Origin: a virus
Lineage: Duplodnaviria; Caudoviricetes
Strand: one strand, 5' to 3'
Length of the DNA: 64,000 bases
IMG/VR virus record: IMGVR_UViG_3300033120_000865
Location: 38,595-102,594 of that record
The notes under the pieces: generated by a model
What the model was told of the DNA's origin: nothing
What the model saw: only the letters and a program-made list of their open reading frames with translations
Database searches by the model: none
Part shown: in pieces, positions 5,256 to 59,739 of the stretch
Layout of the letters: each line of letters begins with the position of its first letter
Numbering within the stretch: the first letter of the stretch is position 1
Translations under genes and position numbers: made by a program

Positions 5256-5286
5256 TTTGTTTATATTAATTTTTTAATTAACTTTG
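5256..5286 (+). promoter_or_regulatory. Bacteroidota sigma-A type promoter for the late operon
   Basis: TTTG-N19-TAACTTTG, matches the -33/-7 consensus. Confidence 0.75.
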
Positions 5287-54207: not shown

Positions 54208-54242
54208 AAAACCCAATAGTGTAACAAACTATTGGGTTTTTT
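54208..54242. terminator. bidirectional intrinsic terminator at the convergence point
   Basis: aaaacccaatagt-gtaacaa-actattgggtttt(tt), 13-bp stem. Confidence 0.85.
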
Positions 54243-54370: not shown

Positions 54371-54444
54371 TGGGGTGTTGCAGGGATTTGAACCCTATCC
54401 TCCTGATTCACAGTCAGGCACTTTACCAATTAAGCTAACAACAC
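54371..54444 (-). tRNA. tRNA-His(GTG), CCA encoded
   Basis: Anticodon arm CCTGA-CTGTGAA-TCAGG; T loop TTCAAAT. Confidence 0.9.
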
Positions 54445-54446
54445 AG

Positions 54447-54519
54447 TGAAAGTACTTAGATTTGAACTAATGACACTCTGCTCTTCAAACAGATGCTCTA
54501 CCAACTGAGCTATACTTTC
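54447..54519 (-). tRNA. tRNA-Phe(GAA)
   Basis: GAAAGTA/TACTTTC acceptor; TCTGT-TTGAAGA-GCAGA. Confidence 0.88.
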
Positions 54520-54562
54520 TTCTTCAAGTTAGTTAAAGTGCAACTTGATAGTAATCACTATG

Positions 54563-54633
54563 TAAACTTATCAGGACTCGAACCTAAAATAACTGCACCA
54601 AAAACAGTTGTGTTACCATTACACCATAAGTTT
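54563..54633 (-). tRNA. tRNA-Gln(TTG)
   Basis: AAACTTA/TAAGTTT acceptor; ACTGT-TTTTGGT-GCAGT; GTTCGAG. Confidence 0.85.
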
Positions 54634-54699
54634 TTTCATTGTGGGTATAACATATTGATACACACTTAATCCTTAATCAAATTGTTATTAAGGCAATTG

Positions 54700-54788
54700 C
54701 AGAGAGTACAGGATTTGAACCTGTGAACCCCTTTTCAGAAGTTGCCTGATTAGCAGTCAGGTGGATTAAACCACTCTCCCAACTCTCT
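54700..54788 (-). tRNA. tRNA-Ser(GCT)
   Basis: CCTGA-CTGCTAA-TCAGG, long variable arm, discriminator G. Confidence 0.9.
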
Positions 54789-54794
54789 ATTATG

Positions 54795-54868
54795 TGGACC
54801 TCAAAGGACTTGAACCTTTAACCTTTTCATTATGAGTGAATTGCTCTAACCAATTGAGCTAAAGGTCC
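54795..54868 (-). tRNA. tRNA-CAT, most likely Ile2 (lysidine, reads ATA); elongator Met not excluded
   Basis: GGACCTTTAGCTCAATTGGTTAGAGC body resembling Ile2 tRNAs; loop CTCATAA. Confidence 0.8.
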
Positions 54869-54875
54869 AAATTTG

Positions 54876-54947
54876 CTGGATAGATAGGACTCGAACCTAT
54901 ACTCTACTGATTAACAGTCAGTTGCTTCACCATTAAGCTACTATCCA
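54876..54947 (-). tRNA. tRNA-Asn(GTT)
   Basis: ACTGA-CTGTTAA-TCAGT; discriminator G. Confidence 0.9.
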
Positions 54948-54953
54948 ATATTG

Positions 54954-55026
54954 TGGAGAAGATGGGATTTGAACCCACATAATCTTCATTGCAAATGAAG
55001 TGCATAACCAATCATGCTCCAACCCC
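54954..55026 (-). tRNA. tRNA-Ala(TGC)
   Basis: CTTCA-TTTGCAA-TGAAG; G3:U70 pair present; two U-U mismatches in the acceptor stem. Confidence 0.82.
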
Positions 55027-55028
55027 AT

Positions 55029-55060
55029 AAAAAATCCTCCTATTATTAGTAGGAGGATTT
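55029..55060 (-). terminator. attenuator terminator immediately 5' of the tRNA array
   Basis: AAATCCTCCTA-CTAATAA-TAGGAGGATTT, U6 run, ends 2 nt before tRNA-Ala. Confidence 0.85.
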
Positions 55061-55086
55061 ATGTTTTTATAAATAAATTTAATTAA

Positions 55087-55164
55087 TTATATACCATCAA
55101 AATCCTCCTTGAGATTACTCTCATGGTTGAAATTAAATGCTATATTTTGAATTGACTTTTTCAT
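55087..55164 (-). CDS. leader peptide MKKSIQNIAFNFNHESNLKEDFDGI (tRNA-array attenuator)
   Basis: ATG AAA AAG TCA ATT CAA AAT ATA GCA TTT AAT TTC AAC CAT GAG AGT AAT CTC AAG GAG GAT TTT GAT GGT ATA TAA. Confidence 0.75.
   Translation of the reverse strand: MKKSIQNIAFNFNHESNLKEDFDGI
55100..55109 (-). promoter_or_regulatory. antiterminator strand
   Basis: AGGAGGATTT, perfect complement of the terminator 5' arm AAATCCTCCT (55060-55051). Confidence 0.75.
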
Positions 55165-55179
55165 CTGTATTATTTATTG

Positions 55180-55210
55180 CAAATATATAAACTATTTTCT
55201 AATATACAAA
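55180..55210 (-). promoter_or_regulatory. Bacteroidota sigma-A promoter for leader + tRNA array
   Basis: TTTG(55210-55207)-N19-TATATTTG(55187-55180). Confidence 0.8.
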
Positions 55211-55213
55211 TAA

Positions 55214-57037
<1,824 letters not shown>

Positions 57038-57454: not shown

Positions 57455-58035
57455 GGTATATATAAATTAGTTGGATTGTCTTTATGAATCTCAATATCTT
57501 TATAATTTTCACTAAACTCTCTTAAATCAAAAGGTTTTGTAATTAAATGTAATCCAGATTTTGAAGGAATATAAACAATAGTGTTTTTACCATCTGGTTT
57601 AGAACTATTAATTAAGTCTTCCATACACATTAAATATTCATAAGTTTTATCACCATCTATATCAAGAATCCATTTCTTTTCATTATCATTATGACCTAAT
57701 CCACAAGCTCTATCATAAGATGCTTTTAAGAATTTATACTCTCTATTCATCATAGTATTAGCTAAATTGGTCATAGCTTTAAAACCTACTTTCTCATAAG
57801 ACCTCTTATTTAATCTAATAGAAGCTCTTGCATTAAAAACTTCACATAATTTTTTAATTTCATCATAATGACTAATTAAATATTCTTCTGAATTTATGTA
57901 ATAGTTTTTAATAACTCTACTATTGCTACCTATTTGTGGATTCTCTTTCTTTCTTTGAAGAATCTGAAGATAATAAAAATCATCTTCAGATTCAAATTTT
58001 AAGAAAGGTAATATTAATCTTAAATTATCAACCAT
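57451..58035 (-). CDS. conserved phage protein (possible primase/polymerase-like fold)
   Basis: WILDID, PSKSGLHLIT motifs. Confidence 0.55.
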   Translation of the reverse strand: MVDNLRLILPFLKFESEDDFYYLQILQRKKENPQIGSNSRVIKNYYINSEEYLISHYDEIKKLCEVFNARASIRLNKRSYEKVGFKAMTNLANTMMNREYKFLKASYDRACGLGHNDNEKKWILDIDGDKTYEYLMCMEDLINSSKPDGKNTIVYIPSKSGLHLITKPFDLREFSENYKDIEIHKDNPTNLYIP

Positions 58036-59252
58036 TATTTTTTAGAATCATATTCAAGATTCATTACTTTAGCTGAAAAACTACTATCAAGAGTTCTGAC
58101 TACTATACCTTCAATCATATTTTCTTTAAAATATTTATTACAGGTATTTATTAAATGGTCTTTTGAAACAAATGGTTGCATAAATACAGTTTTTACTTTT
58201 TCAAACTGTAATGTAGAAGGTGGAGCTGAAAAATAATTTAAAACTCCTCTAAATTCTTCATCACTTTGTCTAACTGCTATATTATTTTCAAATTTATCTA
58301 AACCAAAAAACTTAATATTAGCTTTTTCTTTAGATGCTGGATTATTTTTATTACCAGAACCTTTAAGACTTCCACCATTTAATTCTCCTCTTAACACCCA
58401 ATTTTCCATTGAAGATTTTATAATTTCATTTAGATATGGTTTACCATATTTTACAAAATCATCATCATTCTCAACTTCTTCATAAATTTTTAAATCAGGT
58501 ATAATACCAAATACAGATTTAATCCATTCCCAAATAGTTGGTTTTCTAAAATCCACTACTTTTTTGATAGTTAAAAGTTTATTAACATTTCTTGAACAAA
58601 TAAATCCTTCACCATTCTTAATGCCAATAGTTATAGAACTTCCATCTATTTTTTCAGTACCTACTAAAATAACTGGATAACCTATTTTGTTTTCTAAATG
58701 ATTCCAAAGATTATTAATATTTTCTTCATCAGTTTTATAAACTCCTTCAGGAAATACTTTACCAGCACCAATTTTAATACCATATTTATTAGTATGTTCT
58801 GGTTCTTCATATTTAGTAATTTTTAACATCTCTGTTAAATCTAATAAACTAAAACTATCTGAAAATATATCAATTTTAATTAAACCTAAATAATTTAAAA
58901 CTTCATTTAAAGGTAATAAAATACCATTACTATAAACAGGGTCTCCATTTGGTACTTTAGAAAGATTAAACTTTTTAGCTCTAATTCTTCTTGCTTGACC
59001 ACCAACTTTACCTAACATTGATTTACTTTCATCACCATTAGGTCTAATGAATGAATCAAATAAACTTATATCAGATAGGTTATAATCAGGTTGAATAAGT
59101 ACAGCTTTATCACCTATCTGGTATAAAGTTTTGTTTGCTACTAATTCATATCCTACTTCTTCTAATGCTATTAGTTCAATAGCATTAGCTTGTTCTTCTC
59201 CTTTAAATAAAGGAATTTTGTTTTTAATTGTTACTATTTGTACAGCACTCAT
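58035..59252 (-). CDS. RNA ligase (DRB0094/Rnl2-like)
   Basis: TEKIDGSS (motif I), CSRN, LRGEL, FFGL, EGIVVR; N-terminal OB-like domain. Confidence 0.85.
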   Translation of the reverse strand: MSAVQIVTIKNKIPLFKGEEQANAIELIALEEVGYELVANKTLYQIGDKAVLIQPDYNLSDISLFDSFIRPNGDESKSMLGKVGGQARRIRAKKFNLSKVPNGDPVYSNGILLPLNEVLNYLGLIKIDIFSDSFSLLDLTEMLKITKYEEPEHTNKYGIKIGAGKVFPEGVYKTDEENINNLWNHLENKIGYPVILVGTEKIDGSSITIGIKNGEGFICSRNVNKLLTIKKVVDFRKPTIWEWIKSVFGIIPDLKIYEEVENDDDFVKYGKPYLNEIIKSSMENWVLRGELNGGSLKGSGNKNNPASKEKANIKFFGLDKFENNIAVRQSDEEFRGVLNYFSAPPSTLQFEKVKTVFMQPFVSKDHLINTCNKYFKENMIEGIVVRTLDSSFSAKVMNLEYDSKK

Positions 59253-59253
59253 A

Positions 59254-59739
59254 TTATTTAATTAATTCTATTAATAATTTAGGTTGATAATCAACTACTT
59301 CACAAGATACATTTACATATCTTGCATCATCAAGACTATTTTCATGTACATGACCATGTATATTATACTTAACTCTATAATCTAATTCACTTGTATGAAT
59401 AGGATAATGAGTTAAAAATACTTGACCAAGTTCCTTATGTTTATATTTAAACATTCCACATACAGAATTTACATATTTAAGTAATTCTGGTATATGTTGG
59501 GGTTCATCATGGTTTCCAAGAACTACTTTCTTGATACCATTAAGTCTATTTAGTATTTCATAATTAGACTTTTCCATAGTTATATCTCCAAGAATCCAAG
59601 TAACATCTTTTTTAGATACTACTTTATTCCATTGACTTATAATATGTTCATTCATAGATTCTGCATTAGTAAAACCTCTTTTTATAGCCATATTAGTATG
59701 ATGAAAATGTGTATCTGAAATAAATCTAACTACTGACAT
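59254..59739 (-). CDS. metallophosphoesterase (calcineurin-like)
   Basis: SDTHF, LGD, GNHD, THYP, HGHVH. Confidence 0.88.
   Translation of the reverse strand: MSVVRFISDTHFHHTNMAIKRGFTNAESMNEHIISQWNKVVSKKDVTWILGDITMEKSNYEILNRLNGIKKVVLGNHDEPQHIPELLKYVNSVCGMFKYKHKELGQVFLTHYPIHTSELDYRVKYNIHGHVHENSLDDARYVNVSCEVVDYQPKLLIELIK

Follow-up and report, generated by a model that had tools for sequence, protein, structure and literature searches.

The seven tRNA genes of a crAss-like phage are very probably regulated by a ribosome-mediated transcription attenuator of the trp/phe type, in which the tRNAs under control are those that decode their own leader. The locus lies on the minus strand of a window of 64,000 nucleotides, which forms part of an IMG/VR virus record (IMGVR_UViG_3300033120_000865) of 102,594 bases (102.6 kb) with a G+C content of 27%; all coordinates refer to the window unless another locus is named. 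A first-pass annotation made from the letters alone had described a promoter, a 25-codon ORF, an 11-bp terminator ending in U6 and seven tRNAs with named anticodons, and all of these are present at the positions it gave. Judged from its sequence, the locus has every feature of the multivalent leader-peptide attenuator class that can be tested in this way.

The phage is crAss-like (Crassvirales-related, Fpv3-like) on the homology of its capsid, terminase, portal and virion proteins together with a genome of ~100 kb, an assignment distinct from formal taxonomy. The major capsid protein shares 34.7% identity with its counterpart in Flavobacterium phage Fpv3/FpV4 and has more matches among Bacteroides and crAssphage records, and the terminase, portal and very large virion proteins match PHROG families. 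The phage GroEL is closest to copies in uncultured phages and then to Flavobacterium GroEL at ~70%, and the host is a probable member of the Flavobacteriaceae. The tRNA array comes last in a minus-strand block of genes for ribonucleotide reductase, dUTPase, phosphoesterase, RNA ligase, groES and groEL (55214..56821, directly upstream of the promoter) and converges on a gene for a 1550-aa protein. At the end of the array a hairpin with A/U runs on both sides (54208..54239, strand undefined) is probably a two-way terminator common to the array and the converging gene; similar array-end hairpins occur in the related loci L002, L084, L091 and L096. Contigs from two sequencing runs are identical to the locus with zero differing letters, and one of them may be the source sample.

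The promoter (55180..55210, minus strand) begins 3 nt past the groEL stop codon and has the elements recognised by the Bacteroidota housekeeping sigma factor, with the −33 TTTG at 55210, a 19-nt spacer and the −7 TAnnTTTG at 55187-55180. On the minus strand it is the sole full match to the Bacteroidota consensus anywhere in the genome. As the tRNA array contains no −7 box, there is no other consensus promoter between the leader and the array end. (A sigma-70 promoter scan, of a kind that does not cover Bacteroidota promoters, gave the hairpin on the plus strand only.) Elsewhere, another of only four full consensus sequences in the genome is found at 5256-5286 (plus strand), where the plus-strand structural block begins. 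The leader ORF of 25 codons (55087..55164, minus strand) follows the promoter, an order conserved in nine loci; ORFs of 24–27 codons with divergent peptides occupy the equivalent place in the eight other loci, and the −7 box is retained in all nine.

The codons of this ORF closely match the array. Segment 1, the sensor block of codons 6–16 (55117..55149, minus strand), reads Gln, Asn, Ile (ATA), Ala, Phe, Asn, Phe, Asn, His, Glu and Ser (AGT). Counting over codons 6–17 we obtain the figures given in the first-pass annotation, with 11 of the 12 decoded by the array and all seven tRNAs represented; codon 15 is Glu, though the array has no tRNA-Glu, and codons 2–5 (Lys, Lys, Ser-TCA and Ile-ATT) are not decoded by any of the tRNAs. 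The matching codons, earlier estimated at about a quarter of those in the genome, amount to 27%. The chance origin of such a run had been called very unlikely, and against the genome this stands: not one of 28,367 twelve-codon windows in its ORFs has at least 11 matching codons and three cover all seven tRNAs, for a window (codons 6–17) that was picked after the fact. When no window is chosen and all codons ahead of the antiterminator are counted, the significance is more modest (11 of 17 matching, binomial P = 1.2e-3). With all seven tRNAs represented, and with co-variation across loci as described below, the control codons are tied to the function of the genes downstream.

These genes, all on the minus strand, are tRNA-Ala (TGC; 54953..55026), tRNA-Asn (GTT; 54875..54947), a CAT tRNA of Ile2 type (54794..54868), tRNA-Ser (GCT; 54699..54788), tRNA-Gln (TTG; 54562..54633), tRNA-Phe (GAA; 54446..54519) and tRNA-His (GTG; 54372..54445). 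The CAT tRNA, already suspected to be Ile2-like, matches the host Ile2-type CAT tRNA at 54 of 75 positions as against 44/75 and 41/76 for two Met types, the class of each compared tRNA being one that we assume from its acceptor-stem features. A Met identity was rejected on this comparison, and an Ile2-type tRNA, which decodes ATA if lysidine-modified, is consistent with the ATA at leader codon 8. The anticodon loop differs in four of the seven tRNAs from those of one Flavobacterium genome, which may not be that of the host; such differences in phage tRNAs have been proposed to serve nuclease evasion (PMC10264068). In the tRNA-Ala (54953-55026) the G3-U70 identity pair is kept, although the acceptor stem apparently contains two U-U mismatches; at 51.5 bits it scores lowest in Rfam among the seven, none of which appears to encode a complete CCA end. 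The spacer between tRNA-Ser and tRNA-Gln (54634-54698, minus strand) contains two weak hairpins, is near-identical in L001 despite the differing arrays, and may be the remains of a tRNA or a signal for processing.

Three mutually exclusive helices can be drawn in the leader RNA. The intrinsic terminator (segments 3:4; 55029..55060, minus strand) lies between the leader ORF and the first gene and has an 11-bp stem (55060-55032), a 7-nt loop and a U6 tract that ends at 55029, 2 nt ahead of tRNA-Ala; its energy is −13.9 kcal/mol (z −4.93). Segment 2, the antiterminator arm, covers codons 19–24 (55094..55109, minus strand) and pairs with 55063-55051 to give a 2:3 helix of −17.4 kcal/mol (z −4.23). 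The complementarity of 55109-55100 to the terminator 5′ arm was reported as perfect and is indeed exact over all 10 nt, with pairing as good in none of 1000 shuffled ORFs and in 3 of 1000 random stretches of the genome. The third helix, missing from the first-pass list, is a 1:2 protector and possible pause hairpin within the ORF (55089..55145, minus strand; −18.6 kcal/mol, z −3.65), which in silico excludes the 2:3 antiterminator. The likeness to the trp/his/ilv attenuators suggested earlier is extended by these three alternative helices of the trp/phe type. The minimum-energy fold of the untranslated full leader contains 1:2 plus 3:4.

The effect of a ribosome on these helices was modelled by folding the RNA with the region up to 12 nt beyond the A-site codon masked. 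In the nascent RNA the probability of the 2:3 helix is ~1.0 with the A site at codons 2–15, 0.46 at codon 16 and ≤0.06 after that, which places the modelled switch point at codons 15–16, where the matching codons come to an end. From this drop it follows that the matching codons occupy the zone of permissive stalls and extend no further. The stalls at codons 6–14 first proposed as permissive lie within this zone, which at codons 2–15 is slightly wider than was supposed. In the homologs the switch point is likewise at the end of the matching block, for example at codons 18–19 in L002, 15–16 in L099, 23–24 in L251 and 14–15 in Gundel_1, a phage described below. In the model, then, a stalled ribosome frees segment 2 and one that has finished the leader covers it. 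At full-length equilibrium a stalled ribosome does not keep the terminator from prevailing in most loci, and in this window its probability is 0.38–0.99 for stalls at codons 6–15, so the switch must be kinetic and decided during transcription, as in known attenuators.

From these features we propose the following sequence of events. Host RNA polymerase would initiate at ~55175, as judged from the −7 box, and a ribosome would load on the leader. With all seven tRNAs charged and abundant the ribosome would move past codon 16 and cover segment 2, the 3:4 terminator would form, and a transcript of a predicted ~147 nt would be released just ahead of tRNA-Ala. If any one of the seven were scarce, the ribosome would wait within codons 6–15, covering segment 1 and leaving segment 2 free; 2:3 would then form before segment 4 is made and the array would be transcribed. 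The new tRNAs would relieve the stall, giving negative feedback with OR logic over seven inputs.

The same RNA switch could also gauge translation in general, by its speed or coupling, and respond to any stall or to failed initiation, the codon match being fine-tuning or a record of the history of the array. Modelled stalls at codons 2–5, none of which is decoded by the array, also permit 2:3, and the equilibrium nascent RNA of the window favours 2:3 (0.99) with no ribosome at all. Against this, the 1:2 protector can form first in transcription, although our folding results are divided on whether it does so. The comparison of related loci weighs further on this alternative, which we regard as unlikely.

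Eight related loci (L001, L002, L083, L084, L091, L096, L097 and L099) were reached via the phage GroEL and the flanking large gene. All share the promoter, ORF, terminator and array, and in them the peptide and the tRNA set vary together. For the permutation test we used eight complete arrays, leaving out L083, where the contig ends within the array, and L095, where the leader is missing. In these eight, every tRNA has a matching codon ahead of the antiterminator (38 of 38 intact tRNAs, and 43 of 43 when remnants are included), in line with the co-variation of leader codons and anticodons predicted in the first-pass annotation. The score of the own pairing is reached by 222 of the 40,320 array-to-leader permutations for intact tRNAs and by 68 of 40,320 with remnants (p 0.002–0.006); given the relatedness of the loci, and a permutation p of 0.02–0.04 obtained also for the zone past the antiterminator, these values are optimistic and serve as guides only. 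For the ten variable anticodons, codon and tRNA are both present in 25 cases, the codon only in 17, the tRNA only in 1 and neither in 37, the single tRNA-only case arising because the first five codons were skipped in this count. The match is thus one-way: a tRNA implies its codon, and codons outlast lost tRNAs.

Individual loci illustrate this. The array of L002 (Pro, Asn, CAT, Gln, Ile-GAT, Glu, Phe and His) is preceded by a leader with 15 consecutive codons all decoded by it, and that of L099 (Asn, Glu, Phe, CAT, Gln, His and Cys), which has no groEL upstream, by one with 12 consecutive matching codons. A Cys codon ahead of the antiterminator is found only in L099, the sole array with tRNA-Cys. 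Pro codons are present in all four of the arrays with tRNA-Pro or its remnant and absent in this window, which has no tRNA-Pro. In L091 and L096 a short matching block goes with Pro, Gln, Phe and His tRNAs, of which the Pro tRNA is split in L096, and the leader of L097, whose array includes a Tyr/Ser fusion remnant, has Tyr and Ser codons. The leader of L084 retains His and Pro codons, yet its tRNAs are Gln and Phe alone, and such keeping of codons after loss of their tRNAs is what a general gauge of translation would allow. The coming and going of Cys, Pro, Glu and Ile2 codons with their tRNAs speaks against it.

Several of these loci show signs of rearrangement. The first tRNA of L097 (minus strand, ~10812-10727) consists of a Tyr-like 5′ part fused to a Ser-like 3′ end, a recent deletion, and a LAGLIDADG gene with its own −7 box (minus strand, 10168-9695) follows that array. 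In L001 (7800-8211) and L096 (minus strand, 10640-10226) an HNH endonuclease gene is inserted in tRNA-Pro, of which the 5′ half is left; the insertion carries its own Bacteroidota promoter past the terminator and would therefore bypass the switch for the remaining tRNAs. The leader ATG is only 4 nt past the −7 box in L084 (5647), L096 (minus strand, 10786) and L318 (4514), so that these leaders are probably leaderless mRNAs. An RNA ligase gene (PF09414), which in the window adjoins that for a calcineurin-like phosphoesterase upstream of groES/groEL (58035-59739, minus strand), is also found upstream of the array in L099; none is annotated within 4–5 kb upstream in L084, L091 and L097.

The helices also change in step, as was expected of an attenuator. 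Over the nine loci 100% of the cells in the terminator alignment pair and five of the nine pairs have changed on both sides, two rows contributing partly via a one-base shift of the stem. The antiterminator follows these changes: for each of the nine leaders tested the own terminator arm is the best partner or falls short of the best by no more than 0.7 kcal/mol, and the own-terminator pairing in the clade is equalled by at most 11 of 1000 shuffles. This bears on the possibility that the hairpin is a fixed, leaky terminator, which marks the end of the ribonucleotide reductase-groES-groEL transcript or damps a strong promoter, or that it signals processing of the first tRNA, with the ORF incidental. 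We found no terminator between groEL and the promoter or array apart from the leader hairpin, as a fixed terminator would have it, and a hairpin 2 nt ahead of the first tRNA could help 5′ processing. The tracking of terminator changes by an internal antiterminator, the retention of an ORF with start and stop at 24–27 codons in nine loci and the presence of the element without groEL in L099 make such a role extremely improbable. Host tRNA genes and the phages crAss001 and DAC15 speak further against it, as their promoters lie close ahead of the tRNAs and a leader of this kind is absent. Of the tRNA units in one Flavobacterium genome, the majority carry a −7 box 10–48 nt upstream and none shows the leader layout; in crAss001 and DAC15 a promoter lies a short way ahead of the first tRNA, with no leader-terminator.

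Read-through might also depend on a phage protein or on the leader peptide, as a timing switch or a small protein acting in trans, the ORF being a binding site or the source of the product. Protein antiterminators are common in phages. Some leader peptides act in trans, as does peTrpL (PMC7968998). The peptide here is poorly conserved while codon identity follows the tRNA set, and no conserved unpaired motif stands out in the leader alignment; we therefore judge protein or peptide control very improbable.

Searches around the clade define its extent. In L086–L090 another gene is fused directly after groEL, and they end there, and where tRNA arrays follow groEL in L044–L058 and L079, neither a leader nor a terminator was found over the 330 nt ahead of the first called tRNA. 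A search with the exact terminator pattern returned the L001 and L002 contigs alone, again, and a scan of genome contigs gave bacterial groEL only. The 1550-aa gene gave no match in a single-protein search of IMG/VR; in an alignment search it matched the L002 contig and distant relatives that have no tRNAs at the site, as is the case for L196 and L197.

The design extends beyond this clade. In a more distant phage (L017, GroEL 55%) a different leader and terminator with a 13/14 antiterminator precede a 12-tRNA array. A pattern search based on the promoter and the first four codons only, in which the tRNAs were not used, found two kinds of leader: those in which Pro, Gln and His codons abound precede Pro/His/Gln arrays (in L248 and L256, among others), and those with many Asp, Glu, Leu, Val and Ala codons precede arrays whose first tRNAs are Asp, Asp, Glu, Glu; L251 has an Asp/Glu/Val/Leu array behind its leader. 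L256 has one leader of each type, for separate clusters, and this occurrence of different leaders for different tRNA clusters in one genome again disfavours a general gauge of translation. Two such searches yielded 32 short promoter-proximal ORFs. A terminator is present in 13, all of which are followed by tRNAs (11 of the 13 belonging to one family), and absent in the other 19, none of which has tRNAs downstream; with a second promoter pattern we obtained 16 short ORFs, all of them lacking both terminator and tRNAs. Across five families the own leader-array pairing is the best of 120 permutations. Phe codons in the leaders are TTC in 8 of 20 cases, compared with 11% genome-wide, which suggests that both codons of one tRNA are sampled. 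The phages with these Pro/His/Gln and Asp/Glu/Val/Leu arrays (L256, L248, L251, L214, L215, L218, L221, L236, L268, L272, L274 and L278) are large and of Bacteroidota type, one contig being 327 kb; in this group the tRNAs are clustered by amino acid (Pro/His/Gln and Asp/Glu/Val/Leu) with a matching leader for each cluster, and several tRNAs are duplicated. A short ORF and terminator in a large tRNA region at L311:10639-10800 were not counted, as the antiterminator is weak (equalled by 111 of 1000 shuffles) and the tRNA match poor; the intervening tRNAs there may have been split by HNH genes.

The same design is found in a cultured phage-host pair. The Tenacibaculum phage Gundel_1, whose host is Tenacibaculum sp. 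AHE14PA, has a 20-codon leader (L318:4514-4576), with its ATG 4 nt past the −7 box, in which codons 6–15 are all Tyr, Ser, Cys, Phe or Trp; a terminator follows, and then Tyr-like, Trp, Phe, Ser-TGA, Cys-like and Ser-GCT tRNAs. The leader, antiterminator and terminator (L318:4514-4640; MT732474.1 ~72937-73063) are unannotated, and the record lacks the two tRNAs after the terminator (Tyr-like and Trp). The paper describing the phage lists tRNAs and makes no mention of a leader or attenuation (PMC8776804). Gundel_1 offers the best bench model for this type of locus.

Attenuators of this kind are well known in E. coli. In pheL a stalled ribosome frees segment 2, and 1:2, 2:3 and 3:4 helices are formed (PMC3082878). 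Our locus resembles pheL-pheA, trpL, hisL and the multivalent thrL/ilvL in its short ORF of control codons, its three helices and its U-tract terminator. It differs in that tRNAs rather than biosynthetic enzymes would be regulated, in being phage-encoded and in Bacteroidota, and in having seven inputs of one to three codons each in place of the single-amino-acid run of amino-acid operon leaders. None of the Rfam leader families searched (Trp, His, Phe, Thr and Leu leaders and the trpB motif) scored above its cut-off, the best being the trpB motif at 26.7 bits (cut-off 59) and Phe_leader at 21.6 (cut-off 55); a T-box gave no match up to E 5 and no riboswitch family scored above cut-off. The T-box is also a terminator/antiterminator switch on tRNA charging, but it binds the tRNA directly and involves no translation. 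A further comparison is the E. coli pheM-pheST attenuator, in which a leader that senses charged tRNA controls a component of translation that restores that tRNA; there the target is a synthetase, the input single and the location chromosomal.

In Anabaena a spare tRNA array, the trn operon, is silent until translational stress and is under the control of TrcR (PMC10272220), a DNA-binding repressor that acts at initiation in a general-stress response, unlike the codon-reading attenuator proposed here. Counter-defence tRNAs of T5-like phages, directed against retron-Eco7 and PARIS, replace host tRNAs lost in infection (PMC11555353, PMC11464382); their expression has been credited to a strong promoter with no mention of an attenuator (PMC11555353). 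Replacement of lost tRNAs is the shared theme, although the targets in those phages (Tyr and Lys) are absent from the array of the window. Leader-peptide attenuation is textbook for amino-acid genes, and in a search whose coverage leaves out most subscription journals we found no paper describing attenuation for tRNA genes or attenuator control of those in phages, in keeping with the novelty claimed in the first-pass annotation.

The reason why phages carry tRNAs has been open for more than 50 years (PMC10264068). A codon-matched attenuator implies a supply that is conditional and given when decoding slows, rather than a constant supplement for codon bias, and brings under attenuation a case in which sensed molecule and regulated product are one. 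The phage would thus probably make its array tRNAs mostly at times when they are scarce for the ribosomes. A pure lack of amino acids is hardly relieved by more tRNA, so the purpose would lie in replacing lost tRNA molecules; the likeliest role is to top up tRNAs that are depleted in infection, whether through anticodon nucleases of the host, through RNA decay or through the heavy demands of late translation. The RNA ligase and phosphoesterase encoded upstream may fit a theme of tRNA repair. It is also possible, at somewhat below an even chance in our estimate, that the leader specifically senses attack by the host on tRNA, nuclease cleavage of any one of the seven isoacceptors causing the stall that turns on the replacements. 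PrrC and PARIS AriB, named earlier as defences that might be countered, fit this poorly and were rejected as the specific trigger, as both cleave tRNA-Lys (PMC10264068, PMC11464382) and the array has no tRNA-Lys. If the leader does sense attack, its codon content, shifting with the gain and loss of tRNAs, would record which tRNAs are destroyed by Bacteroidota defences, and product-sensing attenuation would be a widespread and repeatedly used phage counter-defence circuit. A leader reporter could reveal which conditions of infection (nuclease attack, starvation or RNA decay) induce the array, and for which tRNA, and the 150-nt cassette could be used as a programmable tRNA-depletion reporter in the search for anticodon nucleases of Bacteroidota.
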